From contig BDIP01000090.1 in NCBI GenBank assembly GCA_003568945.1, positions 1 through 32,106 of the forward strand: 32,106 bases of DNA. The letters run 5' to 3'. Of the stretch, positions 1-26,662 are shown piece by piece (position 1 is the first letter of the stretch; every line of letters starts with the position of its first letter). The notes beneath the pieces were generated by a model, which searched no databases, was not told the DNA's origin, and saw nothing but the letters and a program-made list of their open reading frames with translations. The stretch is from Kipferlia bialata. Taxonomy: Eukaryota. The translations under genes and the position numbers were made by a program.

Positions 1-34
1 TCTCTCTCTCTCTATTATCCCTCTCTCACCCCAT

Positions 35-857
35 GTTTGGCAATGGCAGACAGGGCAACCTGGCCCGTATCCTGATGGCTGTCTTCATGCTGCTGAGGTA
101 TCATTTCGGTTTATACATGTATATATAACTCAATACTATGTAAATATTTCCCCTCACCCCAGGTCTGTCTTCAGCATCACGTACTTTCTCTCTCTATATC
201 TATCTCCCCACCGTCTCTATCTCTCCCACTCTCTCTCTCTATATAGTTTTCTCTCACCCCAGGTCTGTCTTCAGCATCCCATACCCCCTCTTTCTCAACC
301 AAACCCATCTCTTTTTGTCACTATACTGTATATTCAGTTATATCATCCTCACCCCAGGTCTGTCTTTAGCATCACACACACTTTCTCTCTCCCAGTGTAA
401 TTGTATGCTTGTGTAATTGTATGCTTCTCTTAGTCAGCCGACCCCAGGTCTGTTTTCAGCATCACATACTTTGTCAAGACAGCCGGCATGTTCCTCAGTG
501 AGCTGTATCCAGGTGAGAGAGATATGGTTAGAAATTTCATTGTTCTATTTTGGTTAGAAGTATCATTGTACATGTTCTGTTGATTTATGGACTGTATATA
601 GTCACTCACTGTAGGCGATGCCACCGAGGAGATGGAGACTGTCCTGTCATATGTGCTGGTGGGACTCAGCCTGGTGTACACTGTATCATCAGGTACACAC
701 ACTCTTTAGTATTTATATATATAGATTTATAGATACATACATATATCTATATGATGTTTGTGCTAGTGGGACTCAGCCTGGTGTACACAGTATCATCAGG
801 TACACACACTCTCTAGTATTTATATATATATATGTATATATATACCTCTCTATATAA

Positions 858-895
<38 letters not shown>

Positions 896-1476
896 TATGT
901 ACTAGTTGGACTCAGTATATAGGGGTATATATATATATATATATATGATATATGTACTAGTGGGACTCAGCCTGGTGTACACAGTGTCATCGGGTACACA
1001 TACTCTCCATCATATAAATATAGATTAATATGTATTAATAGAAATGTATAAATCCATGTTTCCATGTGTTTCCCTTACCCCTATGTCTCACCATCTTCAC
1101 CGACGTCATTCAGTTCTTTGTCATCCATCTCTTCTCTCTCTCTCTCTCTCTCTATATATTTATATATATATATATACATATATATAGATAACACCAGGTC
1201 TCACTGGAGCCATCTTTACCGACGTCATCCAGTCCTTTGTCATCTCTATTTCTCTCTCTCTCTCTCTGTCTATATACAAAAGCATATACTATAATGTATA
1301 TGTCTTACCTTTAGGATTGACCGGTGCCATCTTCACCGATGTCATGCAGTCCTTTGTCGTCTCTATTTTTCTCTCTCTCCCTCTGTCTATATACAAAAGT
1401 ATATACTATAATGTATATGTCTTACCTTTAGGATTGACCGGTGCCATCTTCACTGATGTCATCCAGTCCTTTGTCG

Positions 1477-1511
<35 letters not shown>

Positions 1512-2533
1512 ACCTCTATAACACTAGGTCTTACTGGTGCCATCTTCACCGACGTCATCCAGTCCTTTGTCATCATTGGAGCATTCATTGCATTTGCCAT
1601 AGTGTTCTTCAGAGAAAGCATCCCTGCTGCATTCACTATCCTTCTACCTAGGTACCTAGATACTGTATATGTATATATTGTGTTCTTGTGTTTCTGTATC
1701 TCTTATTCTCCTTTTCTAGTGTGGACGGTGGTACTCCCAACAACAGTGCATACTGTATTCACTGGCTCTATATATGTATATATGTATATTGTTACATGTT
1801 CTTGTTGATGTACTTCTTACTCCAGTGTTGACGGTGGTGCCCCCAAGTCCTATGTCCGCACCTCATATACATATCATATACACATGAATGAATATATATG
1901 TTATTTCTGTAACCTATCTATATCTATCTATATATCTATATATATGTATATATAGTTCTAACCTCAAGTGTAGATGGAGGTGCCCCCAAGTCCTATGTCC
2001 GTACCTCAGCAGAGTGGCTGTCCATGTGGCCATCTGCCAATGAGGCAGTGCCAGACGGAACCTCATACACAAAGTGAGTCGTATATACACACAGGGATAT
2101 TTATATTATGACGTGTGTATTCTATCTATTTGTAAATATATACGTATCTGGCCAAGTGCCAATGAGGCAGTGCCTGAAGGGACATCTTACACAAAGTACG
2201 ATGTTCTTTCTGTTACTATTGACACTATATACTGAACATTGAATGTCACTGATGTGTCATTTGTACATTTTTTGTGGTCATCATTTATCTCTGCGGACGT
2301 CCACCCGTGTCAGCTATGATAGTAGTCCCTGTATGTCTGACCCCAGGTACAACAACGTGGTTGTGCTGGCTGTCTCCTACATCATCAAGAGCATCCTGGA
2401 GGGCGCAGGTACAGTACATATTTGCGTGTAAATGTATATCTAGTGAGAGGGTGGGGGATTGTTCAATATGCGTACTATATCTTCAAGTATAAGCAGAGCA
2501 TCCTGGAGGGGGGAGGTACAGTACATCATATCG

Positions 2534-2568
<35 letters not shown>

Positions 2569-5500
2569 GACCAGAAGAGAATGGAGTTAGGTATACATAG
2601 CATGTGTGTACACATCAGTACATATGCTATCTCACCCCCAGGTGGCAATGAGACTGGTTTCATTGTGCAGAGGTTCTTTGCATGCAACAGTGACAAGGAC
2701 GCAGGTAGGGGAGTTCTATCTTCGTGTGTGGTATTAATACATAATTTATAGCGCAGCCTATTCCTGTCTTTCCCGAGGCAAGATGTCCTCCCTGTGGATG
2801 GCTGTATATATGTATATGTATATGTATATCNNNNNNNNNNNNNNNNNNNNNNNNNNNNNNNNNNNNNNNNNNNNNNNNNNNNATCACTATATGTATTAAT
2901 TAAAACATATTCATTTCTTACCCCTAGGCAAGATGTCGTCCCTGTGGATGGTCCTGGATATATACATACATATTATATATATATGTGTGCGTGTGATTGT
3001 ATGTGGATATCAATATATGTTTAGATTCGTGTCTAACCCTAGGCAAGATGTCGTCCCTGTGGATGGTCCTGGCTGCACTGAGATGGCCATTTGTGGCCAC
3101 TGTTGCCATCATGGGCATCAACTACAACATGACAGCTATCAGGTACAGTATATATACTATATACTATGTATAATCATTTAAGGATTTATGTATATATAAT
3201 ATGTTTCTCTCTGTGAGTTGAGAATGTGGCCATCATGGGCATCAACTACAACATGACAGCAACAAGGTATATTGTAGACACTGTATATTACACTCAGTGT
3301 GTTCTATATCACGTAGTTTAGTAATCCCTCACCCTCCAGTCCCATTGAGGACCCCGAGCGTGTCCTCTCTGCCGTGATAGCCAACGTGATACCCACAGGG
3401 CTCAAGGGGGTAATAGTGGCAGGTATGTAGTTACTTACACGATATGTGTAATGTATATCTACGTGATGTCCTTATCCTTCAGTTCTGCTTGGCAGTGCCA
3501 TGGGCTCCTACAATGCAGTGACCAACGGAGCAGCTGCATACTACGTGCAGGTAAGGATATTGTTTTTTTCCCTAGACATACATATGTCTAAATGAATCAT
3601 ACTATGTATTCTTTGTCTCTCTTCTCTCATTTCCAGGATATCTTCAGACCCTTCATCAAGCCAACTGCCAACCAGAGGGAGCTGGTGTTCCAGGTACATA
3701 CAGGACTATTTTTAGAGATACAGCGTACACATTGAGTACATTCCAGGAAGATTGTATATGTATAGTATATATATATATATATATATAAGTGTGTTTCTTT
3801 GTGTTATTGTGCACTGACCTCCAGGGTAGGCTAGCCTCTGTTGTGATTGTTCTGCTGGGTGCCATGTTTGCACGCATCAGCCAGGTGGGGCCATGGTGTA
3901 TTGGGATTTCTTCTCTTTATGTATATATATATGATTATTCATATAATAATATATTCTGTTCTCACCCATCAGTATGGCAGCGTGACTGAGCTGTGGGGCT
4001 GGGTCAACATGTCGCTGGGGGCTGGCGTACTCGCACCTCTGCTAGTCAGGTATTCTTTTTTATTCCCATATACTTTCCTGTGTATGGGTTATACATATCA
4101 AACTATTTGACACTGGGCTGGCGTACTCGCATCTCTCCTAGTCGGATGTGAGTTTTGTCTCTATTATCATTCTATTTTCTGTCCCCCTCACTTTAGATGG
4201 GTCTGGTGGCGTCTCAATGGATACGGCTTCTGTGCCGGTATCGCAGGGGGTACACTGGCAGCCATCATCCAGGTATTCTATTGTTTGTGTATATATATGT
4301 GTGATTATATGTGGCAATTGCACCACCTCTTTCCGGGGATATACCACTCTACATTCCCCTCTGACCCCTAGGGCATCTGGTTCCCCCTGATGTCTGAGTG
4401 GTGCATGTTCCTGGTTGTGACACTGGTCTCATGCATAGCAATGTTCATAGTGACACCCCTCACCAAGCAGACAGACACATTCGTCCTGGGTACGTGAATT
4501 GACATATATATGTATATATAAATATGTGTGTGTATATATATGTGTATACTCGCATATATCTCTCTTTCCTCGGTTTCCTTTGTTTGGTCACAAGCTTTCT
4601 GTGTGGTGTTATCTGTATATCCCTCTCTCATCTCCAGTTGAGTTCTTCCAGAAGTGCCAGCCCTGGGGTCTGTGGAGCTTTGTCTACCCACTTGTAGGTA
4701 TACAAAAGTACACTGTCTATATACTTAACTCGATACTCATTCGGTATATACTGTGGTATATACTTGGATGTATACATATGTCTCTGACCACTAGGCAAGG
4801 AGCTTGAGCACCACACCCAGAGTGAGATGAAGAGAGACCTGGTCTCTGGTAACTTTGCCTGGATCGGCCAGATTGCCTTCTACCTCGGCATACTCACACT
4901 GGCCATCCCAGGTACTCTCTCTATCTTTCTATTTCTCTCTCTCTCTCTATCAATACCATAATTTGTCGGCATCCCAGGTGTTCTCTTTGTTACTCTCTCT
5001 CTCTCTCTCTTTATCTCATTGCCCTTCCCTCCATATCTCTTGTTCTCTCTCTTTCTCTCTGTATACTCATCCTGACCATCCCAGGCACTCTCGTTGTTAC
5101 TCTCTCTCTCTATATCTATTTCTCCCTCTCATTGTAACTCTATCATGTGTATATGTCGCTCCCTCTATTTATGCGGATACTTACCCCTAAGGGAGTCCTG
5201 GTATAACGTGTAGTATATCTCATTATCTCTATCTCTCTTTGTCCCCAAGTCTCCTTGAAATATCTCCAATATATATACTTATCTTAGGGGAGTCGTGGTA
5301 TGACGTGTACCTGTCCTTCTCAGTGGCAACGGTGTGTGCGGCAGGTAGGGATATTGACACTATTAGTATATACATGTATATTCATATGCGTCCCTGTTAG
5401 TCTTTCTGACTTGTGGCGATGTTTGATGTATATACACCTTTAATTAATACTCTTTGCCAACATATATTCTACTGCACTATCCCTCAGGCCTTCTGTGGTG

Positions 5501-5984
5501 CAGATACACACACACATATACATGCATATATATACATTCACACCCTTATCATCAGGCCTTCTGATTGTGTGGTACAGACACACACAGACATACCCGTTCT
5601 CTCTCTCTTTCACCCATGTATATATGCACACTAACCCATCAGGCCTTCTGATTGTGTGGTACAGACATCTACAGGACAAGGATGGGAAGGACAGGGCGAG
5701 GGAGGAGGAGAGAGACATGGAGAGACAGCTAGGTAGGGGTGAAGACATATAGTGAATTTACACCCCCCCCCTCCCCCCCCACACACCCATACATACATAT
5801 CTATTTGTCTATTTGTATGTGTAGTGATTTTGATTATGGACTGATTGTAGGTGTCAGTCCCCGTGGTTCTCTTAAGAGACTGGATGGAGATGGTGCTGGG
5901 GAGGGAGAGAGTGACAGTGAGGGCCAGGGACAGGGAGAGAGGGCATCTCTACTCGGAGCAGAGACTAGGTCTTCACTGTACTAG
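35..5984 (+). CDS. Sodium:solute symporter (SSS/SLC5 family), 5'-partial, 20 visible exons
   Basis: Phase-consistent exons: 35-97, 448-512, 615-692, 1528-1651, 1969-2073, 2347-2408, 2642-2704, 3043-3142, 3340-3422, 3483-3550, 3637-3693, 3825-3884, 3973-4049, 4197-4272, 4372-4489, 4638-4697, 4795-4911, 5288-5344, 5643-5732, 5851-5984 (TAG). SSS motifs: YTVSSGLTGAIFTDVIQ, VQRFFAC, IPTGLKGVIVAVLLGSAMGS, YYVQDIFRP, WWRLNGYG, with many hydrophobic helices. Confidence 0.9.
2831..2882. other. Assembly gap (N run) inside a symporter intron
   Basis: Run of n characters. Confidence 1.
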
Positions 5985-6392
5985 TACCGAGGAAATAGAA
6001 CGTATCTATATGATTTGGAGTGACTTGAGTTAGGCTCAAAGTCCAAGATCCTAGGAGCCTAGCAAAATCTCTGCCTTGGTGAATGTGAAAAAGGGTTCAC
6101 TTCCCTTGGGTTCCAAAAACGCTATATTGCCTATTCATGCTTCTCTGTAGGCTCAGTATGCCGCCCCCGTCAGGTATGTACACCACCAAACCTCTATTAT
6201 TTGAAACCGCACGCAGTGATCATAATCCCTTTCCATTTGTTTGAAATATTTATGTGTATCTATCCCAGTGTATGTACTTGTGCATGACTAGATATACAGA
6301 CCCCATATATGTACTATATATATATATTATATATATGTTGTAGAGTACATGTGTCAGCAACACATCATATTTTTACTCTCTAGATATCATCT

Positions 6393-6628: not shown

Positions 6629-8501
6629 CATGACCCAATCAACCTGTACCGCTTTGGGTGTACTGACACCACGGACCAGAGGGTGCTGCCCCTGGGGCAG
6701 GCAGGTGAGTGGCTAAAGAGAGTGATCGATATTTACAGGTTATTAGGTTACGGCATCAGTATAGTTATCCTACTTGCTGCCCCTGGCACAGTCAGTTGAG
6801 ATATATATATATATATATATATCCCATTACGTATATTCTGAGACTGATATGAATAGTATATACATATACTGGCACGATCAGGTGACAGTATCAGTGTCAC
6901 TAATATTGTATTCATTATAGTGTATGTTATAATAGCTAGTAGATATGTATACTGATATTCAGGTGACGGCACATGCGCTGGGACAGAGGTGAGGTCTCTC
7001 TCCCTCTTTCTAACCTGGAAGGGTACCGATACTTGGTGTTGAAGGTTCACGTGTCCGGGCTGTTGACCCACGTTGACCTCTCTCTGAGTGTGTGTCCCTC
7101 TACACACTCTACCCACTGCATCTGTATCTCCGATACTCTTTCATCTCTCTCCCCCCTCTTATCACCAGGCAGCCCTGGCCTGCTACCGTCAGTCCATCCC
7201 TAATATCGTGATGGGTGAGAGAGTGGCCCTGGCACCCCTGATTGACCAGACCATTCGGTACGGATTTCTCTCTCTCTCTCTCGTCCCCTCGTTCTTCATC
7301 CAGAAGATACATACATATATATAGACATTTGAGACACCTCTCGGTTCTCTCTCCGCCTTCCCCCGTCGCTCCCATATCCCTTCAGTCTAAGTAGAGCAGT
7401 TTCTCTATCTCACAGTTCATATATAGACATATTTGTATCTTTGTCTCACCCCCAGTGATGTGCAGGGGACTGGCCAGTACATGATATATTTACATATATA
7501 TTATGTTAAATATATATACTAGGCTAGTACTGACCCCAGCGATGTCCAGGAGACTGGCCAGTACACTGTGCTGTTGGTACTGACCTGCACTGACACATCA
7601 GGTGCATCAGTGTCTGCAGTATATATATATTATATATGAGTATGTACATATATACCAATAGTACACTGTACTGTTAGTCCTGTCATGCAATGACAGATCA
7701 GGTTTATGTGTAGAGTATACTATATATATATATATATACAGTATTATCATGTATGCCACAAGGACAAGCGCTGACACATCAGATGTGCAGGGTGTATATG
7801 TAGATAATATACTATGTATTTGTTAAGTATATATATATGCATATATATCTGTTAGTCCTGACCTGCACTGACACATCAGATGTGCAGGGTGACATTGCTG
7901 CCCTGGAGAGACTGGCAGAGTACCCAATCAGTGTCATTGTGGTATGGGTTATATGTATATACTTACACATGTCTATTTTTCATTCACAGACTGTATATCA
8001 ATGTATATATATGTGTGTTTGTGTGTGTGTATATACATATACCAGTGTGTCATGGAGAGACTGGCAGAGTACCCAATCAATGTCGTTGGTATGTGATATA
8101 CACACATATTTATACATTAGCAGACTGCATAATAGTGTGCGTGTATATATATATATATATATCAGTGCCAAGGAGAGACTGACAGAGTACCCAATCAGTG
8201 TCATAGTGGTATGTGTTACTTATATATATATATATTTGACACATATACACTCCAATCCAAATCTACATAAGTTGTACAAAAAACAACAACCCCCATAACA
8301 CAGTCAAATTTTTATGTATTCATAGTTCAGTAATTACACCCTTCTCTCTTAACCCCAGGTCTGCCTGGGTGTTGGCAGTCCTGATGGCAACCCCCACAAG
8401 TACCGCCATCCCCTACCCACCCTTGAGAGAGACATACCCAAGGGACTGTCCAGAAAGGCCAGACAGCACTACGAGACATTTGTCTATGACTCGGTATGAT
8501 G

Positions 8502-8548
<47 letters not shown>

Positions 8549-9546
8549 AAGAGAGAGAGAGAGACATTTTATTTTCCAAAGGGCTTCTCTAAGAGGGCCA
8601 GACAGCACTACGAGACATTTGTGTATGACTCGGTATGGTGAATGCATGCATTCATATAGTTGTATTACCTACAGATTTATTTCTCTCTTCTCATTTTCTT
8701 ATGCCAGGTTATGGGGTATCCCTCCTCCTTAGACATCTGTCTCTCTCTCTCTCTCCCTCTCTTTATATATAGATATGTTTATCCCACTCCAGGTCATGGG
8801 CTGTCCCGGTATCTTAGATATATAGCTCTCTCTATTACATAGATATGTATATACATACCCCAGGAGATAGGCTGTCCCCATATCTTGGATATGCCCCTCT
8901 CTCTCTCTATATATATATAATTATATATATATATAGATATTGATATATAGACATGTTTATCCCAGGTGATGGGCTGTCCCCGTATCTTTGAGGGAGACAC
9001 TGAGCTACCCACTGAACAGATACAGGCTGCTGCTATGCTGCAGTACCTGCCCAAGCAGTACAAGGTACAAATATGTATATATATGAATATTGGCAGTGTA
9101 TATATATACAGAATAAATACAGAACAGATACAGGCTGCTGCTATGCTGCAGTATCTACCAGCTCAGTATAAGGTGCATATGTATATATATAGTGAATATA
9201 TATGGTGTATATATTCAGTATATACACAGAACAGATACAGGCAGCTTCTATGCTGCAGTATCTACCAGCACAGTATAAGGTACTATATAATACTATAAAT
9301 GTATCCAAGGTCTAAAGCCCTCATCCCCACCTGTATACAATAGTATATGTAACTTTATATATTCTCAGGGTATCTCGACGTCTCTCTCTTCCTTCATCCT
9401 ATATAACCACTTCGATCCCCAGAAGATGCAGGCCATTCAGATGTTCATAAAATATGTATGTATTTATGTATATGTCCTTCCCCTACTTCAACTCCCCTCA
9501 TCTTCAGAAGATGCAGGCCAGGGGTCTCATCCCTCAGGATGAATAA
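6629..9546 (+). CDS. Copine/RGLG-type VWA-domain protein, 5' part missing
   Basis: Exons 6629-6704, 6963-6988, 7169-7257, 7540-7601, 7880-7941, 8359-8493, 8966-9064, 9508-9546 (TAA). Translation INLYRFGCTDTTDQRV..C.G...ALACYRQSIPNI...ALAPLIDQTI...GQYTVLLVLT...LAEYPISVIVVCLGVG...AMLQYLPKQYK follows the copine/RGLG VWA motif order. The N-terminal DFTxSN segment is not found. Confidence 0.72.
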
Positions 9547-9875
9547 GACACTCATGTGACCCAGCGTGCGCCCACAGGTGTAGATAGATACTGATACCGA
9601 CACATCACAAGTGTATACAATGGGTCCAGAGGGGAACTGGCTCTTCCAGACAGACTTGATACTAAGTACTCTTTCCCGAAGCTCACAAAGAGTCTGCTCG
9701 TCACCGTCCCTTGGCTTGTGTGTATTGTAAATAGAAGAAGTGTGAGTTTCCAAGTCTGTTATATTCCCATTCTCTCTGCCTTCCAACTCTGGTGTGTACG
9801 TAAGCTGACTTCTACGAAACCCTGAGCTGTCTGTATGGGGAGACCACGTATCTCTATCAGAGACTCTCCAATGTC

Positions 9876-12800
9876 CTACTCCGGTGAGTACTGCTGCACC
9901 CGGCAGAACACCATCTCCTCAAAGGACAGGCTGGGGTCAGACTAGCCGGAAGGAACCAATATTAGTAGTATTCCAATCGACTGTTCCAAGTTTGAATAGC
10001 GTACCTTGTGGCCCCGTCCATCTGCCTTCTGGGAGCCTCACCATGAATGCAGGATCTGATACTCTCTGTGGTTTAGAAGGCAACACCCATACAATAATAG
10101 ATAAGAACCTCAGAAGAAAGAGGCCCCCAACTAAATATTACTCTTATATACATATGGAGAGTGAAAATAGAGTGTATGGAATTTGGGTAGATGCTAAACC
10201 CAGTACATATACCTATGACGGCATCGTCTGCCTTTGTGCTCTTGGGTGACCTGGCCATTAGAACCCCAATAAGACATGATTGTGTATAACTATAGAAATT
10301 GGAGTACAATCCTCGCTCATAAACCCAAAGCCTCTCATTACTAGAGTATATGTGTAGACTCTACACTGTAGAGTACCTGAGAGAGAGTAGCAGTCTGGCA
10401 TTGGTCTCGCTCACACCCTCCGCCCCAAATAGTCCCTCAATGGTGACCTTTGGGTTAGTCGGTTAATGACTGTATGGCTGAGTTACTAAGTTGTGTATCA
10501 TAAATGCGTGTACCTTGATGAGACGTGTGACATCACTGTTGGGCTGGGCGTAGTTGGGTATAGCCAGCATAGACTGGGTGAGCTTGGTAACTCTCCTCGT
10601 GAAGGCAGGATCAGTGGCGCTCCCTAGATTAGCCACATGGCTCTTGAGGAAGGTGTCTGAAATGAGTCATTCGAGATGCAAGGTAAGGTGAAAGGATATA
10701 ATGTGTACCAATTACACATCTCTACGATAGGTATATTCTATGTTTGGATTTCCCTTACCTATGCGGAAGATGTCTGAGATGAACCTGGCTTTGACGTCTG
10801 GGTTCTGCGGGTTAGGATATGTATACAGAGAGAGAGCATATATCTAACACCTCCAAGTGTCAGTGTAGTTATTCGACCAGTTCTGAGGTCATTCACCTCA
10901 GAAGTAAGTATACTATATATAGTTGATGACATAACCTATTGAACGTAGAATGTGAAGATAATGCACACATACCCGCAGTGTGTGTGACTTCTTCATCCAG
11001 CCTAGACCCCAGATGGGCTTGGCTGTGCCATCTCGGCCGGTAAGTCTGACGTCAATAGGAGAAATAGTTCTGACAATACTTTGCAAATTGGTAAACAGTG
11101 AATCTGCTCGTGCCCTGGTGTGTAGGTTTCCTGGTAAAAGAGATTTTACATAGTAACCACACCACTACCTGAGGAGAGCAGCTGTAAGATAGGCAGCGAA
11201 GAGCTGGTTGGGCAGCAGGTTACGTACAGTGTCCTGGTATTTAGTAATTAGGTGACTGTTTGATCAGAGGGTATATATATTCTAACGTGGTATAACACCG
11301 AGTATAGTATGATGTAAACTGTAGAAGTCTTTGTAATAGAAGGTGTATAGTAAAAACTCTAACATATACTACCATATAGACTATATATGGTTGACACTAA
11401 CCACCAATGCTGGAGAAAGAGTTGACTGGACATCGCTTAGCAAGTAGCCAAGGGCCCGTAGGGACAGGTCTTTGGTTAGTGTTAGTGTTAGTCAGTTTGA
11501 GTTAAAGCACTGGAACATAAGGGACAGAAGGGAAATTGTCTATTTCAAAGAGAGATGCTTTATGACTAATCAAGAGAGGCGTACAGCTACTAGTAGTAGC
11601 CTACTACAATGAAAAACACCTTTTAGTGGAGCCACTTATACATGTAACACAGCGGCTTTCGAATACTATATGCAGAATACATACAGTATTCTATATTTGT
11701 ACTTCATGTGCATACCTATGACGACCCCTTCGCCTGAGTCTAGCCACTGGAGGTGAGTATTGAATTGAAAGTGTTGACAAAGGTTTGAATGTATATGCAA
11801 ATAGGTAGCATTCGGGAAGATATAACCTTCTGTGTCATGATGTCGTGGGCTGATCGGGTAAAGATGTCATCTCGCATCATGCTCCTGTTGTGAATAGACA
11901 ACTGAGTTGTAGATATATTTGTGATACATAAAAATAGCTACCTAATATAACATCTGGAGTTATAGTCAACCCTATGAGTTGTGAATCTCCACCCGTATAC
12001 TTATAGTAGTACTCTATGTGTGTGTGGACAGCGGTGTACCTGACATACTGCCGGCTAAGTGACTCCGAGACTCGGCTTAGCTCAGTCCTAACGTCCTCAA
12101 GGATACTAAGTGTCTGGGTGTCAGAAGCATTTCAGGTTATAGAACAGAAGAGTATCTAGAGTCCTCAAGGATATAGACACACGTGACAAAGTGTTGCCGA
12201 CAACATAAGGAATGTTGACACACATAGACATGCCACGTAACTATGACTGCCAGAGTGACACGTATATCTATACTACTCATAGTATGAGTCTCATACCTTG
12301 TCGACTGTCTCTGTGAAATGATCATCACATACAGCCTCAACAAGCGCAAGTGACACATCATCAAGGGAGCTCTGAAGGGCAAACACATCGTTCCAGAGTA
12401 CGGTGACTGCCTAGGTGTTAGCTACTAGAATTGCAAGACAACTAGTGAAAGACCTAGTAGGATTTGAAAGGCAATAGGCGCTACTTACCTTGTGTGCCTG
12501 CCAGGATCGAATATCCACTGTCCCTGCATCTATATCTAGATCAAAGTATGTGGCAGAGGCATAGAAGTCCCATGGGTACTGGTCTATGGACACAACGTCA
12601 GAGTCAGGGACCATGCTGTAACTAGGACAGGGGATGGTCATGCCTGTCAAAGTAAGAAGAATATACTGTATCATTCACATGCTTGAACCTATGTCATTAT
12701 CGAACTGATATTTTCCATACCTGGAACAATAGATGAGTAGAACTCTGCTACATGAGAGTAGGATGCGGCAATTGCTGGTCCAAGAACTGACATAATCTGA

Positions 12801-15800
12801 CGTTAGAGTCGAAGACGTGATGATTTGTATTGCACTCGACTCTGCATCTTGGTGCTTGCAAGTTGCAATGATATACATTATGTCTTGGACAATAGTAAGG
12901 TGCCAAAATATGACTATTCATCAGCAAGACAATATCTTTGGCAGCCCCCATAACAGACATACTACTACTAGCCTTTGGGTCTGCTGTGTCACACTCTCTC
13001 TTGAGCCTGTCCGTCACTGCTGCTGTAAATAACTGCGGCACAGAGGTAAGTATGCTCGTGTTAACCTGGGATCAAGCATTACTTGAAATGATTTAACCAA
13101 TCAGACCATCACAATGGCATTTGGCTCTTGTCATAGATATGATGCAACAGTTATTATATTGCATATGTGATTTCCCGTATATATTCCGTTACCTGGCTGT
13201 GACAGCCAGGCTGGCTGTCTCCACTGGTCAACTGCGAGTCCTTCCCAGAGAGTGCCCTGTCAATGAGGAAGCTATACCAATCACTATCAGCTTCAATGTG
13301 TTTCATTATCGTTTGTAACGGTAACGCCCTTTGTGACAAAGGCTTTGTCTCCTCAGGTATCATACCTGGGATACAATGTGGCGACTATACTGTCCCACTG
13401 TGTTGTCAGGTTAAGTGTGATCTGTGCCTCATGGGCAGAGGAGAGTCTGAACAGCATCACTGTTGTCAATTGAGAGCTCGGCAAAGTACACATGTGTTGA
13501 AGGATTCGGTAGCCGGAGCACTTCCAAAACGTATATGTGCGATATACAGATGATATATATGACTGAGAACACAGAACATCATCTTTGTCACCTGCAAGTG
13601 GCTGCGGTGGAGAGCTAATATCCTCCTGGAGATAGGGGGCATCGCTGTCTACACTGCCCACACCTATGGTTGGTTGGAGATAGAGAGCTTATGGTGATTA
13701 CATCTTAGTCTAATTGTGTCTAATAGTAAAAACAATGTCTTATATGATACCTCATCATTTAACAATCCTAATATAGCGGTTACAAAGTTTGTAATACAAA
13801 CTGACATTGTACACTAGAGACACACCTAGGAGTCTTGCTCTCTCATCCCACTTGTGGGCAAACTCCATCACGGAGAGAACTACATCCCGAGGCACATCGT
13901 TCTCGAGGATAGTGTCTATCATGGAACCAAACACCTGACGTGAAACTGATTCTGAAAACGACTGGTTATGACTACACTATTCAGCTAGTTACCTCCAGTT
14001 TAGCTTAGCCTTAAGATAGATTAAAGTAGAATTTGTTCATAACATACCACGTTGAGCAGACTGTGGTGGTGCTTCACATACTCTGCTACCACAGGCAGTG
14101 GGGAGAATATTGGACCTAGGCTAGTTGCCACATCCTGTGGTTAGACTCTAGTTGCTATTGAAGTAGAGTATGAATCCTTGGTGAAACCGAGTGGAATGCA
14201 TCTGACTCACCTCTGTTCTCTGGAGAATGTCTTCACAATGCTCCAGCATCAGAGCCACATTGTCGACACTGGCTAGGATAGGGCGACCTGAGAAAGAGTG
14301 AGAAAGACACATAAGTGTTACTATACACATAGCCGCAACATATGCTGCCACAAAGAAAATAAAATATAATAGTTACGGACACGTACTGCTGTCGATGCTG
14401 AAGATGGACTGCTGGAGGGACTTGAACGCTGCAGCGACCCAAGAGGTTGGGGTGTTGTCACCCGTCTCGCCTCTGTCACCCACCAATGACACATCCTCAC
14501 TAGCCTGGGCCTTAAGTACATCAGCAACGTCCCTGGAGGTATAAGAATGTAGAGCCTCAATGTACAGATAGAACGTACTAGAACATTTAAGATGATGTAA
14601 GAGTACGGGTGTTAGCATTGAACCATATGTACGTTTACTCAAACTAGAACACAGTCTACCTCAGAGTGTCCTCTCGCCCATTCTGTGCCCACGCGAACCA
14701 GTGCTGTGGAGTGCGCACTATGGCTGACTTGAGCCTGTGATTAGATGACAACACAATACTTTCCATGTGGTATCATTATCGCACTGTCGAGACATCCCTA
14801 TATTCCGACTCCTCCTGCTTCAGACTAAGACTTAGTGTCTTCAGACTAAAACTTAGTGTCTTCACATATTGAGATACAGTCACCGATAGGAAAGAAGAGT
14901 AACTACCAACCTTGCTTGAAGAGGCCCTATGGGCTCAAGGCAGGAGAGTGTCCTCCTAGTGTATGTGTTGAGGGTCAGTGTGTGATCAGTGTCCGCGTTC
15001 CATCGTAGAGGGCGAGTGATCAATGGCTGAGCACGATGGGGACCAAGTAGTGGACTGCGTAGGTGCTCCATGACATCGTCCAGTTCTGGGGTTAGATCGA
15101 AAAACACGACACGGTAAATGTTCATAGTACTAATAATCTATCTTAGTAGTGCCACTCACCCACACCATAGAGTTCCAATACTCTTGCACGCATTCTCCCA
15201 TACACATTTTGCATAGGCTGCAGTCTCTCATAGGCCAAAAGATACCTGGATTGAGAGAAAAACTACTGTACGGTTTGGTATAGAGGTACTGCAACATGCA
15301 GTCTGCAAGTATACATCTCCTGTCGTCATATTACTGGCATACCTCTCATCACGGAGAAGCGTTGCCACAGACTCACTCTCAGTGACAAGGTCAACCTGGT
15401 GATGAAGATGGCGGAGATAGAGAGGAATCTTAAGCAAAGGTCTATCTATGCCCTTGACTTGGGGGTGATTGGTACGGTAAAGAATCTACACGTACCTTGT
15501 ATCCCTCCAGAGCAGCTGTAAGAGCAGCTTCCAGCTTTGGATCTGGTAACCCGCCTAGGGCGTCCTGAGGATTATCATGTTGGTCAATATGTCGGTTGAG
15601 GTAATTACAAACACAGTGACAAACCTTAGTCTGTCTGAAGACCGGTAGCCACGCCATGACATTGTATGCTACCTCTGTCCACATTGAGAGACCAGGAGCC
15701 TAAAATCAGTGGATTGTTGAACGTGAACCTACGCATACCTTGCCATATGCAGGACGGTGTTTGACAGTCTACATGTTGCTGTGAACAAGTAGGAACATCG

Positions 15801-18800
15801 ACTATCACAGGTAATGCCTTCAAACCTATAGATAACTTAGACATAGTCAGACATAGACTGTGTTGTTTTCGAACACAGTTTGGTTGAGAAGGTCAAAGAA
15901 CGCGTATATCTCTCACTGCATGGGACATTGTAAATAGATTTCAGTCACTTACCACTAGTGTCATCTTCGTAGGAGATGTCTCTGGCCCGTCAAGCTCCAA
16001 CTGAGTTTAGCTAAGTACAGTAGGGAGTACAATAATTATAGATCGTCAATAGAATATACCAAAGTGTCATACCTCAACGTCGTTGAGGTCTAGGGAGTGG
16101 GTAATCCTAAGCAGGTCAGGAGACTCCCCACTCTTGGGTGCAGCGCCGGAGGACCTCCTTCTGCCTACGACCTGGCTCACCAGGAGATGGTCGTTCAACA
16201 GGAACAACGTCCGGTTGCGATGGACCTTGACGCCAAAGGTCGACGACTGCACCTGATGTCAATGATAGTTAGGTGCATCAACACACATACCCGATTATGC
16301 TCCCTGTACCTGCATCTGCATCTCCTGCTTCAGTGATACATGGGGCTGGGTGAGGAACTCTACCATCTCGTCTCTGTTGCCACCTGTGAGTCTATAGCAC
16401 AGGGCAAGGATACCGTCCTTTCCCTCGAGGTGTCCTTTAGTGCTCTGAACACTCTGTGCAACCTCCTTGAGACCATGCAAGGCCCTCTCCATATCCTCTA
16501 TCTCAGGGTGTCTGGGAGGCAGCTTCTTCAAGTACTCCCCTGCCAGCAACTCATAGCGCATAACACGCTGCCAGGGCTCAGCGAGAAGAGATCCCACAGT
16601 ACTGCGTCAAGAAGATAGAGGAGGTGAATGCAAGTTACATGATGTAAATGACAGGCAACGCGCCAGCAAAACATACAAGTATCCGTCGATACAATGCAAC
16701 TTGTTACACTTGATACCTGGGATACTCTTCCTTTCCGACAGTACGGACTTGCACTCTTGTAAGGGCCTCGCACACACTGTCTTGCTCCATGAATGTCTTA
16801 CAGCTGTCATAGTAGGCGACATATCCCTTGAAGGAACTGATCAGAGGGGTCCACTCAACCAGCAGAGTCGCCAAAGTCTTGTTGGCAGTCTTCATGCCCT
16901 GGAGGCTGGACACGAATATGTCACTCACATTGCGGACCAAGTCGAGACCTGTGGCATATCTAGCCAGCTCCTCCTGCTGTGCCTCACTCAGAAGCGGGAG
17001 GAGGTCACTGAGCCTTGTGGACAGCTCACACACACGAGCATTAAATGTAAGCTCAGAGGACAGTATCTCTGCTAGGACCCTCTCATGAGTTGGCATGTCT
17101 CCTGCCTCTGAATAAGCAGGTGTTGAGATGCTGGTTGTTGTGACGGTAGACAGGTCACCGGTGGAGAGGTCAATGGACGCCACCGGAGCATCATCTGCAG
17201 CCCCATCCACATCATTCCCAACGGGTTGCTCCCCGGTAGGGTAGAGACCTAGCTCGTCTAGCAGCAGCTGGCATAGCGACTGATAGCAGGGTGAGACACT
17301 CAGGCATCTCTTTGGCTCTGGTGTGATACATAGAATCCCAGAGTCCAAGAGTACACTGTACCCAGGAGTGACGGAGAGCTCCACTACTCCAGCGGAGGAC
17401 ATAGAGACAGATCCACTTGGGTCCTGTCCCAGAAGGGCCAGAAGAGGCAGCAGACCAGACAGTCTCACTGCACCAGTGATACCAAGTCTCTCTAGCACTG
17501 CCTCACCGGTAGGTGCATCCAGTAGAGGGGAGTAGGGGTTGGAACACGACAATGAGCAAGAGAGAGATAGAGAGGGCGCACACATGACACGGCTACCAAT
17601 GCGCTCCTGCAGAAGCTCTAGCATGGCGGGGTTTCCAAGAAGAGAGCGGAGGGAGGGGGAGAGATACTCAGGGAGGCCGTAAAGTGACATGGCCTGAGAG
17701 ACCTCGTCTCGTGAGAGACGTGGGAGATGGACCGTGTAGGAGCCTGCCTCGGGGCTCGAGAGGCTCTGTGTGGCGGACAGGAGAGTAGCGTCCTCGATAC
17801 ACTGGCCCCAAACTGCAGGGGTGGAGGTGACCATAACTAGTGTGTGTCCGTTAGTGGCCTAAGGGTGAGTGGGTACCAAACTAAACGACACTGACGGTGT
17901 GGACTGTGTACAGTCAGCAGATAGAAGGAACATAGACACAATGGCTTGAGATACGTTGTATGTAATTGTATACTTCATGCATTGAGACACCGTTGACAGT
18001 ATTGGACACATCACTGTACCTCAAGTAGCTGTGTCACCCAAGTGAGTATCTTTCTCCTCTTTTCCGCTGTTTCCACCTCCTGCAGACCGTCGAGGACAAA
18101 GAGAACCCTCCTGTCACTCCCAGTGATAGAGACCAGGAGAGGGGCTAGCTCACTCATAGAGGACACCCCAAAGAGAGAGTGCAAGGTCTCCTCCAGTGGC
18201 TGACTCAGTGACAAGTAGTAGGGCACCGTGGAGAGTGTCTTGTCACGGACTGTCTGGAGAGTTAGTGCAGCAGCCTCCCAGGTCTTACCCATGCCCCGCT
18301 CTCCTAGGAGGACCATGAGAGGCATAGTACCCTCTGCTGCTACCTCCTAGTTGTTGGTGATATGTATACAGGAGGGGGGGGGGACTGGCCATTACTATAC
18401 ACCCTATAGAGTGTATATGCCACGAGTATATACCAGTTACACCCGCAAGTGAGACTATACTACTCATAACTTATGAGTCTCATAAGTATGGATCTATGTA
18501 GCAGTATACGAACCTGACCAATGAAGTCTGTGTATGCCTTGTGCACACTCTCTCTCCTGACATAGAGAGACTCATTGTACTGGGTGCCTCCCTCACTGCA
18601 AAGGTCCTGCTGCAGCAGAACACCCTCAGCTACCTGCAGAGCGGTGTCTAGAGGGATAGAGGCAGAGGTTGGCACCTTGGCCAAAGCGTGTAGACCACCC
18701 AATGCTGCTCTACAGTTCTCGACAGCCATCTCTCTCCCTCCCTTACTGTAGCAGATCATGCCCTCGCAGTGTGAGAGGTAGGTATCCACCTCAGGGGTGA

Positions 18801-19272
18801 GGGTGTCAAGGTGCCACACCCAACTACGCCAGCAACTGAGGATATAGTCAAGGTCTAACTTGCCATCGTTGTGGGAGAGTAGGCACTGGAGCTGCTGGAG
18901 GTAGGGCAAGACCACCCTGCTGACTAGACACCGTGTAGCGATCTCTTGCTCCTCTGAGGGTCTCTCTGGGTCAACGGGAGTGCCCACCATGCCACTGACC
19001 ACGCTTGACATGTCCTTGTCACCACTGTAGACAGGGGCAAGGTGGCTCAGAAGCGCTGTATGGACGTCACTCTCAACTGCACCCAGTCCTTGGCCACGCA
19101 TGTCGTGTGTGATAGCTGCGGAGAGGGCCCTCAGGCAGTGGGATACCAGTGAATGGCCGTTGGCATCTGTACACAGTCCAATGGCTGCAGGCACCACAGG
19201 GCTGGCGGGGTCGATAGACAGACCCACCAGAAAGCCCAGGAGGGAGTCACGGCAACCTTCTACCCCTGGCAT
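9876..19272 (-). CDS. Large multidomain protein: N-terminal helical region + STAND/NACHT-like NTPase + RhoGEF DH + PH + long unassigned C-terminal region (>30 exons)
   Basis: Exons 19272-18514, 18346-18020, 17903-17882, 17836-16717, 16601-16310, 16252-16073, 16000-15953, 15768-15739, then a largely phase-consistent run of short exons down to a TAG at 9876-9878. Phases near 10800-11130, the exact start and the last exon are uncertain. The link across 15953-15768 is inferred from completion of the PH domain. Confidence 0.65.
14818..14864. repeat. 21-bp tandem repeat (~2.2 copies) in an intron
   Basis: cttcagactaagacttagtgt / cttcagactaaaacttagtgt / cttca. Confidence 0.85.
15625..17090 (-). other. 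Dbl-homology (RhoGEF) + PH tandem within the large gene
   Basis: ERVLAEILSSELTFNARV (DH CR1), FKGYVAYY, SLLAEPWQRVMRYELLAGEYLKKLPPRHPE...MERAL (DH CR3), PH strand RTLFLLNDHLLV, and a C-terminal helix with W (NVMAWLPVF). Confidence 0.85.
17600..18570 (-). other. STAND/NACHT-like P-loop NTPase module within the large gene
   Basis: YVRR motif, Walker A GERGMGKT, Walker B VLFVLDGLQE, sensor-1-like IMVTST, and a GxP motif (LLGNPAMLELL). Confidence 0.75.
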
Positions 19273-19610
19273 GACGTGAAAGTCAGGCAGTGTGGTGAGG
19301 AGTGGGTAAAGAGTAGGAAAGCTGTGCTTGTCATGCAGTAGACAATCAGTGTGACAGGCAAAAACTTAGTAAGGGTCTAGGAGCTCTTTCAAAAACTGAG
19401 AAAGGGGCTAGCTCCTGATACTGTATTTAGTGGCAGATAGCCCCTCTCTCATTGGTAGCCTCTATAGGTCGCCACACTCACTGGAGTTGAGAGGTGGTTA
19501 CCCACCAGAACACATACATAGAGGGTTGTAGCTGGGAGGGAGAGAGCGTGAGAGAGAGAGGGTTGTAGCTGGGAGAGCGTTCCACCTTCTGACCTGGCAG
19601 TGAGAGAGAG

Positions 19611-19983: not shown

Positions 19984-21855
19984 ATTCCCGAGCCCTCCTC
20001 AGGTATGTGTCCACTCGTGTTACTGTTGTGTTACACAAGAGATGGCAGACACGCCCCCTCTTGAACCTGCGGAACAATAATTAACACCCGTATCACCATT
20101 GCCATATATACTACATATTGTGTGGGACAAGAGTGAAAAAGTAGAGAGGTGATACTCTTATCCAGTGGGATTCCCTCCTACCTTCTATATTCCTCGGGGA
20201 GTTACACATAGTATTGAACGCTCCTGCTCTCTTCCAGTCTCCATAAATGCATAGTTCCCCCCCTCCCCCCAGGTTTCATGGGCCCCATGATGACTGACCT
20301 CTACCAGTTCACAATGTGCTATGCATACTGGAAGCTAGGTAGGGTGGCGCATGATTCCAGTGAGAGGTTCCAATATAGGTTTAGGCCTGATGCCCTATAT
20401 ATCAGTGGCCCCTCACAGCCCAGTGACACCCCCACTCTCTCTCTCTCTCTCTCTCTCCTCTCTACTCTCCCTCTATCCAAGCCCCTCCCCCCCAGGTGTG
20501 AGTGAGAAGACTGCCACCTTCGAGCTCTTCTTCAGAAAGAACCCATTCAAGGGGGAGTTCACAGTGTTTGCAGGTGGGTGTGTGTGTGTACTACTTATCG
20601 GTGTGTGTCATCCCACCTCTCCTGTATGTACAACCCCCCCCCCACCCTAAACCCTAGGTATGGATGAAATTGTCAAGTGTCAGTATCAGTATGCAGTATC
20701 TGTATGTATATAGATACACTGATACTGATACTGACCGCTAGGCATGGATGAGATTGTCAAGTATCAGTATGTGTATATATATATACTGATACTGACCCCT
20801 AGGCATGGATGAGATTGTAAAGTTCCTGCACCACTTCAAGATCAGAGAGGACGATATCGACTACCTCAAGGTGTGTGTAGAGTGTGTATATATAGATATA
20901 GATAGACTTCCTCAAGGTATGTGTAGAGTATGTATATATACAGAATACAGTAAATAAATGGACATGAAGTGTATGGGTATATACGATACGATTTATGACA
21001 TCGGCTACCTCAAGGCACAGTGGATATATATAGATATGTAGATACAGATATCAGGGTGTGTATGGAGTGTATATACCCGATATCCTAGAGAGGACGACAT
21101 CGACTACCTCAAGGTATACAGTGAGTATATATATATATATATATATAGATAGATAGATAGATATAGATAGACTACCTCAGGGCACACAGTGTACATATAC
21201 AGTATAGAGTATATATATGTGGATATTGTATATATAGGTATTTACGACATATGATATCCGCTACCTCAAGGTGTATATACAGTGTATATATATCAATGTA
21301 TACATGGAGTGTATATAGGCGGTGTATATAGAGTATATACACACGATTACCTGCATGAATGTAGGTGTATCCATGCACCCGTCACCCCCGACCCCTCACC
21401 CCCCCCCCACCCCTAGACCGTGATGCCCGATGCCGAGGATGGGTTCTGGCAGTACCTGAGGGACCTGGACCTGTCCGGTGTCACGCTCAGGTGGGGGGCA
21501 TAGTGTATGTGTATATGTATATGAGTCAGATGGGTGGCCTAGTGTATACACCTCATCTGTCACTCTATCTGACACTGACCCCAGGGGTGTCAAGGCTGGG
21601 ACACCCGTGTTCCCAAAGATCCCCCTCATCACTGTGACAGGACCCCTTGGTATGTTGCATATATATGTGTATGTATATATAGATGTGTGCGTGTGTATAT
21701 ATGAACATGTACTCAATAGTGTGTGACATACGAAATTCACTGTGATTGTTGCATGTCTACTCCTAACCGTTAGGTGCCGTTCAGCTGCTCGAGACGCCCC
21801 TTCTAAACGGTGTCAACTACCCCTCCCTGCTGGTCACAAATGCAGCCAGAATGAG
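19984..21855 (+). CDS. NAPRT: Nicotinate phosphoribosyltransferase, N-terminal portion only
   Basis: Exons 19984-20002, 20273-20338, 20496-20573, 20803-20870, 21417-21490, 21585-21649, 21774-21855. Translation includes MMTDLYQFTMCYAYWK, FELFFRKNPFKGEFTVFAG, DIDYLK, GTPVFPKIPLITVTGPL and QLLETPLLNGVNYPSLLVTNAARMR. The start codon and the C-terminal barrel (EFGxRR onward) are absent. Confidence 0.92.
20871..21272 (+). repeat. Array of five degenerate copies of the NAPRT exon 3' end plus donor
   Basis: GACTACCTCAAG|GT-like copies end near 20915, 21014, 21113, 21181 and 21269, separated by TA-rich spacers. Confidence 0.9.
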
Positions 21856-21923
21856 GTACTGTCTCTCGAGCACGGTCACTATATGGTATCACATATACGT
21901 CTGTATATGTATTGTGTATCAAG

Positions 21924-21948
21924 CCCCCCCCCCCCCCCCCCCCCCCCC
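21924..21948. repeat. Poly-C tract (25 nt)
   Basis: Homopolymer run between the NAPRT and FAR-17a fragments. Confidence 0.95.
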
Positions 21949-21971
21949 GTTCTCCCCTCCCCTGACCCCAG

Positions 21972-22342
21972 TTGACCAACTTCACAGCCACGTGGGTTGT
22001 GGTCTATGCCGCCCTGTCCGTGGCCCCCATGCTGTTCCCAACCCTGGCCCAGGTGCAGTGGGACGCCATATTCCACCCAAGAGGGTGGCTCAGGTGAGGC
22101 CTCAGTCATACCATGCATACCCCCCCCCCCCTCTCTTTCTATCATGTGTATGATCCCGTGTACTCTATATTATACACTCTGTGTCTCCCTGACCCCCAGG
22201 CACAGTCTGTTTGCTGTTGTGCTTGACCTCACTGCGTGTCTGTCCATTGGCTACTGGGCTGTGGATGACATCGATGCCCAGACAGACCTCTGGCCAAAGT
22301 GGGCCCAGAGGTGGAGCCTCGTGCACAACATGGGTGCGGGAA

Positions 22343-23500: not shown

Positions 23501-23628
23501 CAAGTCCAGACACATCAGATGTCCACTATGACACCGGAGGTGGAGACACAAGAGAGAGAAAGGCAAGTACTTGAAGGGACACAGGTGGCAGGGATATATA
23601 TGGAGAGTAGAGAGATAGATACACCCAC

Positions 23629-24073
23629 CTTGGATAGTTGTCCCAGGAGCTCGCCCCTATCCTCATCTGAGGCCTTCTTGAGGGCCTTCCGGATGCCCTT
23701 CTCCTCTGCAGAGCGCATCTCCTGCAGAAATGCAAACTGCTGGTCGAACTTGTCCTGTCTGAAGGTGCCAATGGCAGAGTCGAACCTTGGGTCCAGACCC
23801 CTCTCCTCCTCGTGGTACTGGTAGGCAGACCCACGCACAGGGCGGGCAGCGTCCACCTCCTGGGGGCCAGCCTTCTTCTTCGACTTCTTGGACTTGCCGT
23901 GCCTAGAGGTGTCATAGATGCGCTCCCTCAAGAGACTAGTGCGAGATAGCTCTCGGTGCTGCCTGTGTGAGTTAAACTGAGGAGAGTGCAGACAATACCG
24001 TAGATACGTACACTGTGGGCTTGAATCCCTGCTGGGCGAGCAGGTCCCCCATAGGGGTATCGTCATCGTCCAT
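23629..24073 (-). CDS. RRP36: rRNA biogenesis protein RRP36 (DUF947), 3' part missing
   Basis: Exons 24073-24012 and 23962-23629. KAGPQEVDAARPV...LDPRFDSAIGTFRQDKFDQQFAFLQEMRSAE matches the RRP36 core. No C-terminal exon is recognisable after the donor at 23628. Confidence 0.8.
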
Positions 24074-24374
24074 CCAGGATCCATAAAGAGAGGGTAAGGA
24101 TGGAGTCCAAAACAGATCCACTCTTCCAATGATTCTTCAATCGAGGCCATTCCATGGAAGACGAAGCAGGAGTGCATGAGGGCACATTCAATTAACACAA
24201 AGGAGTGCTTCGTTCATAAAACACAGAGTGAAACCATTGAATGACAGACACTGAAGAGACACCGAGACACAATCCTGAATCCAACAGACACAAGAAACAC
24301 ACACATGAAAAGAAAGACACCGTCACAAGCGAGCCAACACAGCAGAGAAGAAATTGGATAGGTTCTATTCAAAC

Positions 24375-24827
24375 TTACTCCTGCTCCTGCTTGAGGGTGT
24401 GGTGGCACCTTCCGCAGTAGAGGCGGGTGGTGGATCCCTGGGAGTGGCGGGAGTAACGGACACCGGCACCGCAGTGCTGGCAGTCGGAACGGAGACGGCG
24501 GATCTCACCCTCACCGGAGACCTCGAAGTACTTGAGGACAGCCAGGGGGTTGGGCTTCCTGACCTGCTTGACCTTGCTGGTCTTGCCGACAGCCTTCTTC
24601 TTTCTCTTCTTGGCACCACCGTCGAGGGGAACAACGACGTTGATGGTGCTCTCCTCCTCAAGGCACTCAAGAGTGGCCTCAGTGAGGATAGAGGAGCCGG
24701 TGGCCAGAACGAATCCGGACATTCCGGTCATAGACTCGACAGCGTCAGTCACATCAGCGACGCAAGCGCCAGAGGCGACCTCAAGGGCGAAGGTGCTGCA
24801 AGGGGCACGGACAAACAGCTGGACCAT
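24375..24827 (-). CDS. RPS27A: Ubiquitin-like domain-40S ribosomal protein eS31 (S27a) fusion, intronless
   Basis: 150-aa ORF. A 71-aa UBL ends in LDGG, followed by AKKRKKK, LAVLKYFEV, IRRLR, and zinc finger CQHCGAGV...RLYCGRC. Confidence 0.93.
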   Translation of the reverse strand: MVQLFVRAPCSTFALEVASGACVADVTDAVESMTGMSGFVLATGSSILTEATLECLEEESTINVVVPLDGGAKKRKKKAVGKTSKVKQVRKPNPLAVLKYFEVSGEGEIRRLRSDCQHCGAGVRYSRHSQGSTTRLYCGRCHHTLKQEQE

Positions 24828-25087
24828 GTTATATCAAGGCGAAAAACACACCAACGCTGCTTCGATGTAGGTTTTGACCCAGACCTTTCTTTCAAACGGA
24901 GACAAATAGTACCCTGTTCACTTTTATTGCAAAAGTGGTATCATATTTCCAGACGAAAAACATTGTTTTTACTCTGCTTTCCGACGAACCTCATTTCGAC
25001 TATTTCCACGGGGTGTAGCTGCCAGCTTTCCAAAAACAGTGGGGCAGTTCAGCACCATATGAGTCCACTGTACACAGACAGTGTGAG
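24828..25087. promoter_or_regulatory. Probable bidirectional promoter region between RPS27A and the RFC subunit
   Basis: 260 bp between divergent ATGs, microsatellite-free, with short A/T runs. No specific element identified. Confidence 0.5.

Positions 25088-26629: not shown

Positions 26630-26662
<33 letters not shown>

Follow-up and report, generated by a model that had tools for sequence, protein, structure and literature searches.

Intronic repeats called mirages have been reported in amphioxus, in Adh3, in the globins BflGb6 and BflGb9, and in PGBD5 and troponin C (PMC3087553, PMC3902484). As described in PMC3087553, they are tandem copies of an intron-exon boundary, taken from either exon end, many of which keep the AG or GT while normal splicing is undisturbed. 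The unit identity of BflGb6 is given there as 81-100%, and mirages are proposed as a route of intron gain, their birth being called unclear (PMC3087553). Our literature search, with supplements outside its scope, found mirages in amphioxus only (PMC3087553, PMC3902484) and returned no report of codon-biased intronic copies among titles and abstract starts. The copies that we describe here belong to this repeat type, which is already known; their codon-frame excess beyond ordinary decay is new in the searches made.

Kipferlia bialata is a free-living unicellular metamonad (a fornicate) and a relative of Giardia. The window, that is, the whole stretch of DNA analysed, comprises positions 1-32,106 (32,106 nucleotides) of K. 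bialata contig BDIP01000090.1 on the forward strand, and all counts rest on this stretch. Its first gene, G1 (35-5968, +), resembles sodium:solute symporters (SSF, PF00474) and has 20 exons and 546 open codons in the window, with its 5' end outside it. In the joined-exon open-frame model, all exon boundaries of G1 are GT-AG, the first acceptor excepted. PF00474 was carried by 29 of 30 atlas matches of G1 exon 4 (score 0.92-0.94), and a Pfam search gave no match for seven G1 exons tested, nor for exon 4. A search for relatives of exon 4 yielded no usable sequence among 21 candidates, one further repetitive match due to chance, and no solved structure. Besides G1, six further genes were modelled with open frames. 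The model of the copine gene (G2; KIPB_000735, PF07002; 6629-9546, +) is in agreement with the deposited protein from residue seven onward, and the exon at 25299-25793 was 100% identical to protein KIPB_000740.

The first exon of G1 (33-97) has a loose end at 35, the spliced run extending upstream of it. Its genomic acceptor reads AT instead of AG on a contig without any other letter, and is preceded by a strong branch/pyrimidine motif (score 9.1). Either the acceptor is non-canonical or this is an identical copy of the whole exon, with the working twin located outside the contig.

We aligned each exon locally to each intron by a codon-blind procedure, in which the alignment itself set the boundaries, and counted matches scoring at least 15. 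The results showed 36 copies of a splice site with the adjoining exon edge, distributed over 24 arrays and six genes. Matches were found in 24 of 114 adjacent exon-intron pairs, compared with 0 of 576 pairs that share a gene without being adjacent and 2 of 2958 pairs drawn from different genes. Copies lying upstream were exon starts in 19 of 19 cases, and copies lying downstream were exon ends in 17 of 17, showing the geometry of junction-spanning duplication; whole-exon copies numbered 0 of 36. The counts leave out two genes, one on the minus strand (about 9640-19300) and one at about 23600-24830, as well as the exons of the seventh gene after 28643, and copies scoring below 15 (for example near 899, 1720, 7766, 20916, 21015, 21181 and 21270).

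The splice dinucleotide was intact in 29 of the 36 copies (AG in 17 of 19 upstream, GT in 12 of 17 downstream). Copied acceptors had a median score of 5.1 (n=18), compared with 4.5 for real acceptors (n=57) and -8.8 for other intronic AGs (n=342), as expected if they were functional in another allele; copied donors scored 1.2, below the 3.5 of real donors. The median length of the 21 copy-bearing introns was 282 bases, against 88.5 bases for the 36 introns without copies. Fifteen of the 24 arrays hold one detected copy and multi-copy arrays hold 2-4, with periods of about 95 bases at exon 2 and about 96-117 at exon 4, and the spacers are often unalignable. The ends of many copies adjoin runs of (TA)n or (TC)n, which may point to a role of microhomology.

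In G1, exon 5 (1969-2073, +), an open frame that is spliced in a contig with no other letters, is followed by a copy of its end (2149-2197, +) including the GT donor at 2196-2197. The six codon differences listed by the original prediction between exon 5 and 2149-2195 (TCT/AGT, CCA/CCT, GAC/GAA, GGA/GGG, ACC/ACA and TCA/TCT; seven bases, five codons silent) were all recovered, and use of this copy would cause a frameshift. Upstream, a copy of the exon 5 start (1826-1865, +) with an intact AG ahead of it shows four differences, all four silent, and its use would likewise shift the frame. The statement that the copies of exon 3 (615-692, +; predicted from its open frame) near 760 and 955 differ silently only also held: both downstream copies of its end with GT, at 759-799 and 950-993 (+), differ from it only silently.

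Exon 4 (1528-1651, +), real by its open frame and the spliced contig, is preceded by four copies of its start (1085-1125, 1198-1244, 1315-1361 and 1432-1478, +), all of which stop at exon base 47. Divergence is greatest in the two copies closest to the exon, which also have a different acceptor. Copies 1198 and 1432 share a breakpoint and differ in eight codons, seven of them silently, and exon 4 is represented by at least three sequence versions. The claim that exon 4 copies show only I/M and I/V replacements stood for 1198, 1315 and 1432 and failed for the omitted fourth copy (1085-1125), which carries Ser/Phe, starts 6 bases short and has AT where AG is expected. The three nested copies in 1198-1527 are in frame and run without a stop as far as the real exon (330, 213 and 96 bases). 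Upstream of exon 2, its start is copied three times (163-190, 263-284 and 358-379, +) with intact acceptors, and contig 26-808 holds these copies together with exon 2. Local alignment also revealed copies (all +) of the exon 6 end (2495-2515), the exon 8 start (2778-2801 and 2928-2957) and end (3225-3260), the exon 13 end (4115-4143), the exon 17 end (5057-5084), the exon 18 start (5191-5212) and the exon 19 start (5556-5587). Multi-base codon changes between exons and copies included TCT/AGT, CTT/TTG, AAG to GCT and GCA, and AGA/AAG.

Beyond G1, the copine gene contains 11 copies in 7 arrays (6775-9279). A nicotinate phosphoribosyltransferase-like gene has copies on both sides of exon 20803-20870 (20660-21113, +), a replication factor C subunit gene has a copy of the start of its last exon (26611-26632, +), and the gene at 27776-28643 has a copy of the exon start at 28192 (28108-28129, +). 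On the minus strand, a membrane-protein gene carries a copy of an exon end with its GT (31861-31892), and a short, uncounted acceptor and exon-start copy below the score threshold lies at 30780-30802 (-), ahead of the exon at 30714. The last 31 bases of copine intron 7602-7879 copy the end of the preceding exon with two silent differences and supply the branch motif and AG, and a second copy near 7766-7790 spans the junction; this intron is a candidate for intron gain or acceptor takeover by duplication.

Several features of the gene models were observed alongside. In the deposited model P0001 (25088-29450), the replication factor C subunit is fused to the next gene and the copy at 28108 is read as coding together with its intron, so mirages can mislead gene prediction. 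At 21855-21972, 116 bases separate the nicotinate phosphoribosyltransferase-like fragment from the exons of an unrelated membrane protein, and the phases show no obvious join, possibly reflecting a misjoin, a truncation or a fusion. The minus-strand gene at about 9640-19300, which looks RhoGEF-like from its motifs, has introns without microsatellites and without near repeats, unlike the neighbouring genes, and comparison of the window with itself gave no near repeats between 10,000 and 20,000. Copies thus seem to go together with microsatellite-rich introns.

We then assessed how mismatches relate to the codon frame. With alignment-set boundaries, the pooled mismatches fell unevenly on codon positions 1, 2 and 3 (23/18/79). 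The original prediction that mismatches are mostly synonymous was overstated, as 48 of the 120 mismatches over the 36 copies are not silent; still, 72 are silent, compared with 30% under a composition-matched neutral null, and none of 5000 permutations reached the observed value. Its premise that neutral intron copies should ignore the codon frame was wrong, as the exon side is under selection. With a selected exon and a neutral copy, silent changes accumulate on both sides and replacements on one, so a silent excess is already expected. This corrected null gives about 46-47% silent mismatches and a 0-fold/4-fold ratio near 0.5-0.6.

Against this corrected null, we found that 39 of 776 0-fold sites (5%) and 52 of 211 4-fold sites (25%) differ, a ratio of 0.20 (array bootstrap 0.13-0.32). 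Stratified by base, the ratio was 0.21, with 39 0-fold changes against 59 expected at a ratio of 0.5 (P=1e-5); the stratum in which the exon base is C gave 0.48 (10/143 versus 11/75). Taking one copy per array yielded ratios of 0.17-0.25 with a largest P of 0.005, and removal of the three arrays named in the original prediction left 0.23 (33/579 versus 37/151, P=0.001). In full-pipeline simulations of a selected exon and a neutral copy, the ratio was 0.55-0.62, and 0 of 200 runs reached 0.204 or less in each of five settings. When conversion between exon and copy on the same chromosome was simulated, whichever its direction, ratios of 0.57-0.85 were obtained in 6 of 6 settings. When a prior coding phase was simulated, in which each lineage took up 0.12-0.13 selected changes per site before 0.03-0.04 of neutral decay, the ratio was 0.19-0.22 in two settings.

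A permutation-based test against the corrected null, which is conservative because it is conditioned on the observed change types, was marginal, with 58 of 102 unique changes silent versus 47% (P=0.025); by gene, it gave 30/48 for G1 (P=0.05) and 22/45 for copine (P=0.31). In the G1 core, 8 of 331 0-fold sites differ versus 27 of 100 4-fold sites. The copine gene, with 19/223 versus 16/60, did not fall below 0.5 (P=0.13), and alone it does not beat the corrected null. Comparing copies with one another, 4 of 84 0-fold and 7 of 24 4-fold sites vary in G1 (P=0.002), whereas the copine copies look neutral (12/94 versus 3/25, ratio 1.06). The copine copies therefore serve as an internal control, indicating that copies decay after formation.

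Next, assembly support was assessed by contig mapping over positions 1-6250 of the window; the contigs come from one sample and possibly from the same reads as the window. Contigs without other letters span 26-808, 1523-1909, 1962-2525, 3231-3752 and 3801-4913 at a depth of 339-446. Three of these (26-808, 1962-2525 and 3801-4913) hold an exon and its copy on one DNA contig, 1962-2525 holding exon 5 and its copy, and at these joins they speak against an assembly artefact. Copies such as 1198-1478 sit in repeats bridged by no listed contig. Other letters were listed solely at 1337-1400, outside exons, in the overlap of two near-identical units. Among the contigs mapped on G1 exons, no second allele or paralogue was found at 80% likeness or more. 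The G1 locus in the sequenced material looks homozygous. A copine exon search matched its own protein only (1 of 1 candidates), and two metagenome scans for relatives gave 202 and 38 pattern matches, of which none was confirmed.

Splicing was evaluated with a 2065-base contig from a run guessed to be RNA. This contig is spliced, and its offsets fit G1 exons 4-20 exactly, indicating that it skips the copies; for instance, 1526-1649 maps to 617-740, 1967-2073 to 741-847, and 3041-3139 to 971-1069. The eight listed pieces contain no other letters, in a setting where contigs drop rare forms. Several copy bins had no contig cover in this run and were not counted as evidence. The spliced contig always takes the AG and GT that yield the shortest exon (across 1652-1968, 2074-2346 and 2705-3042), and the upstream decoy acceptors that it skips score like real ones.

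Based on these results, we consider it more plausible than the rival readings, with a probability of about 0.6, that many of these mirages arose when homologues of long-standing divergence underwent unequal crossover or template switching, in which case copy and exon would stem from two different working alleles. In one such switch, synthesis or exchange would leave chromosome B inside an exon and re-enter chromosome A in the upstream intron, and the product would carry the B acceptor and exon start followed by the whole exon of A; the mirror event would leave a downstream copy. At birth, the copy would differ from the exon by allelic divergence, mostly silent, and ordinary recombination between a copy and its own exon would have the same effect. 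A later exchange between an existing copy and the exon of another allele, within the shared tract, could create new versions at the same breakpoint, and copies would decay neutrally after birth. Splicing might pick the AG and GT of the shortest exon, or wrong products might be degraded. The reading requires no function of the copies.

This origin implies that exon and copy were both coding for most of their separate history, and the observed ratio of 0.20, well under 0.55-0.62, favours the part of the original prediction that invoked capture from diverged alleles, with no donor allele seen. A probably diploid genome, as reported (PMC5874029), fits this origin. In 24 of 34 copies, the 20 intron bases past the splice site were no nearer to the real flank than unrelated introns were, and the likeness of the flank did not go along with the divergence at 4-fold sites (0.29 versus 0.24). 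A single capture event does not predict this mismatch, which speaks against it, and tract-level exchange after birth was probably involved. For this model, alleles must differ by about 0.2-0.25 at 4-fold sites, a diversity that we infer. Divergence of this size between alleles is near the highest diversity known in eukaryotes; alternatively, the homologues may be of hybrid or old asexual origin. It is tempting, and somewhat doubtful, to go further and read the copies as a fossil population sample, each of them a fragment of another working allele that homologues have exchanged time and again. Their 25% 4-fold divergence would then reveal a hyperdiverse, recombining species, whether by cryptic sex, by hybridisation or by old asexual homologues exchanging sequence. 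If so, diversity and selection could be read from a single homozygous assembly.

Other explanations were weighed against the capture of homologous alleles. Duplication on the same chromosome, after which the copy decays neutrally and the exon gathers silent changes, would make the copies older versions of the exon's own allele. Such decay surely contributes to the pattern: it predicts a silent excess without extra assumption, it fits the copine gene (P=0.13; copy versus copy 1.06) and the C-base stratum (0.48), and the permutation-based test rejects it weakly (P=0.025-0.05). As the explanation of the pattern it is unlikely, with 0.20 seen against 0.55-0.62 simulated (0.57-0.85 with conversion) and with the G1 core at 8/331 versus 27/100, and it needs silent sites in the exon to change about five times faster than an intron 100 bases away. 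The simulated conversion values also bear on the proposal that echoes are swapped back into the exon, since same-chromosome conversion alone cannot give the pattern, and the 'archive' function attached to that proposal found no support. A donor in the form of a paralogue, or of a homeologue left by an ancient hybridisation or genome doubling, which has meanwhile disappeared or escaped notice and whose exon edges were imported by recombination, would account equally for the coding-constrained divergence and the multi-base codon changes while needing no high present-day diversity. We looked for the paralogue named by the original prediction and saw none: no contig with other letters fell on G1 exons at 80% likeness, and the copine exon matched its own protein only (1 of 1 candidates, which is weak evidence). 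Together with the position of 36 of 36 copies beside their own exon, on the side set by tandem geometry and in six unrelated genes, and with at least three versions at exon 4, this makes such a donor rather improbable.

Occasional use of the copies as translated alternative exon parts, with selection keeping their codons, would agree with the intact AG or GT in 29 of 36 copies, with acceptors scoring like real ones, and with the three nested exon 4 copies that are in frame and stop-free. We judge it very unlikely. Use of 22 of the 29 copies with an intact site would give a frameshift or stop, including the copy at 2149-2195; the bias is equal in the 29 copies without an open frame (0.20) and the 7 with one (0.22), so that translation, as originally suggested, is unneeded; open frames occur in 7 of 12 in-frame cases, a small excess over the 4.1 expected, and a single nested array accounts for three of the seven; no copy of the 36 spans a whole exon; and the spliced contig, bearing in mind that contigs drop rare forms, joins the real exons with no other letters. 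The K. bialata genome is a short-read assembly and is reported as probably diploid, with k-mers suggesting diploidy (PMC5874029). Two haplotypes joined in tandem through microsatellites could thus be imagined, and many copies do border on (TA)n or (TC)n runs, at which contigs are interrupted. Separate contigs nevertheless cross exon and copy at 26-808, 1962-2525 and 3801-4913 with no other letters and a neighbour-like depth of 339-446; they may share the reads of the window, so it is the joins that are tested and not the sample, and we give the artefact almost no weight. Three other candidates were rejected: recursive splicing, as only some copies begin with GT and the codon constraint is left unexplained; a cDNA origin, ruled out by the intron-side splice sites kept in the copies; and truncated alternative exons, ruled out by the tandem geometry in 36 of 36.

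A spliceosome reported to keep only 87 of 174 surveyed proteins (PMC6679479) passes over decoy acceptors whose scores match those of real ones. If capture from homologous alleles is right, mirages would be born between homologues and not by slippage of one chromatid. Across the genome, thousands of copies would then preserve alleles that the sequenced material lacks, and in this free-living relative of Giardia they would offer a test of diversity and of recombination. If it is wrong, the locus is one more mirage-rich locus, in a protist.

Silent-cassette systems, such as Borrelia vlsE, Neisseria pilS/pilE and trypanosome VSG, also keep partial unexpressed copies near an expressed sequence. These systems store protein-changing variants of surface antigens, and transfer from donor to expressed site has been shown. 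In contrast, the K. bialata variants are mostly silent (0-fold 5%, 4-fold 25%) and lie in housekeeping and transport genes. In human germline minisatellites, unequal exchange or conversion carries repeat units from one homologue to the other; the K. bialata arrays differ in that one unit is a working exon edge, so that units would record coding alleles. Mutually exclusive tandem exons duplicate the whole exon with both splice sites, which was seen in 0 of 36 K. bialata copies.

Gao and Lynch are said to have described intron gain by tandem genomic duplication in 2009. In this process, an internal duplication is reported to leave exon-like sequence in the intron, and in the classical cases exon-only sequence around AGGT is duplicated to give a new intron (PMC3443670). 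Copine intron 7602-7879 resembles it, taking its acceptor from a copy of the preceding exon's end, whereas nearly all K. bialata copies duplicate an existing splice site inside an existing intron. The mirages of amphioxus are the closer match. As there, K. bialata copies lie in tandem beside their own exon and keep the AG or GT in many, not all, cases, and the spliced contig, from a run guessed to be RNA in which rare forms would be invisible, contains the real exons and skips the copies. The word 'synonymous' is absent from the main text of PMC3087553, and its supplementary alignment of BflGb6 could show the same bias. The K. bialata arrays differ in having units of 1-4 copies, microsatellite spacers and intron flanks that are often unalignable, and in a divergence that follows the codon frame beyond what a selected exon and a neutral copy would give.
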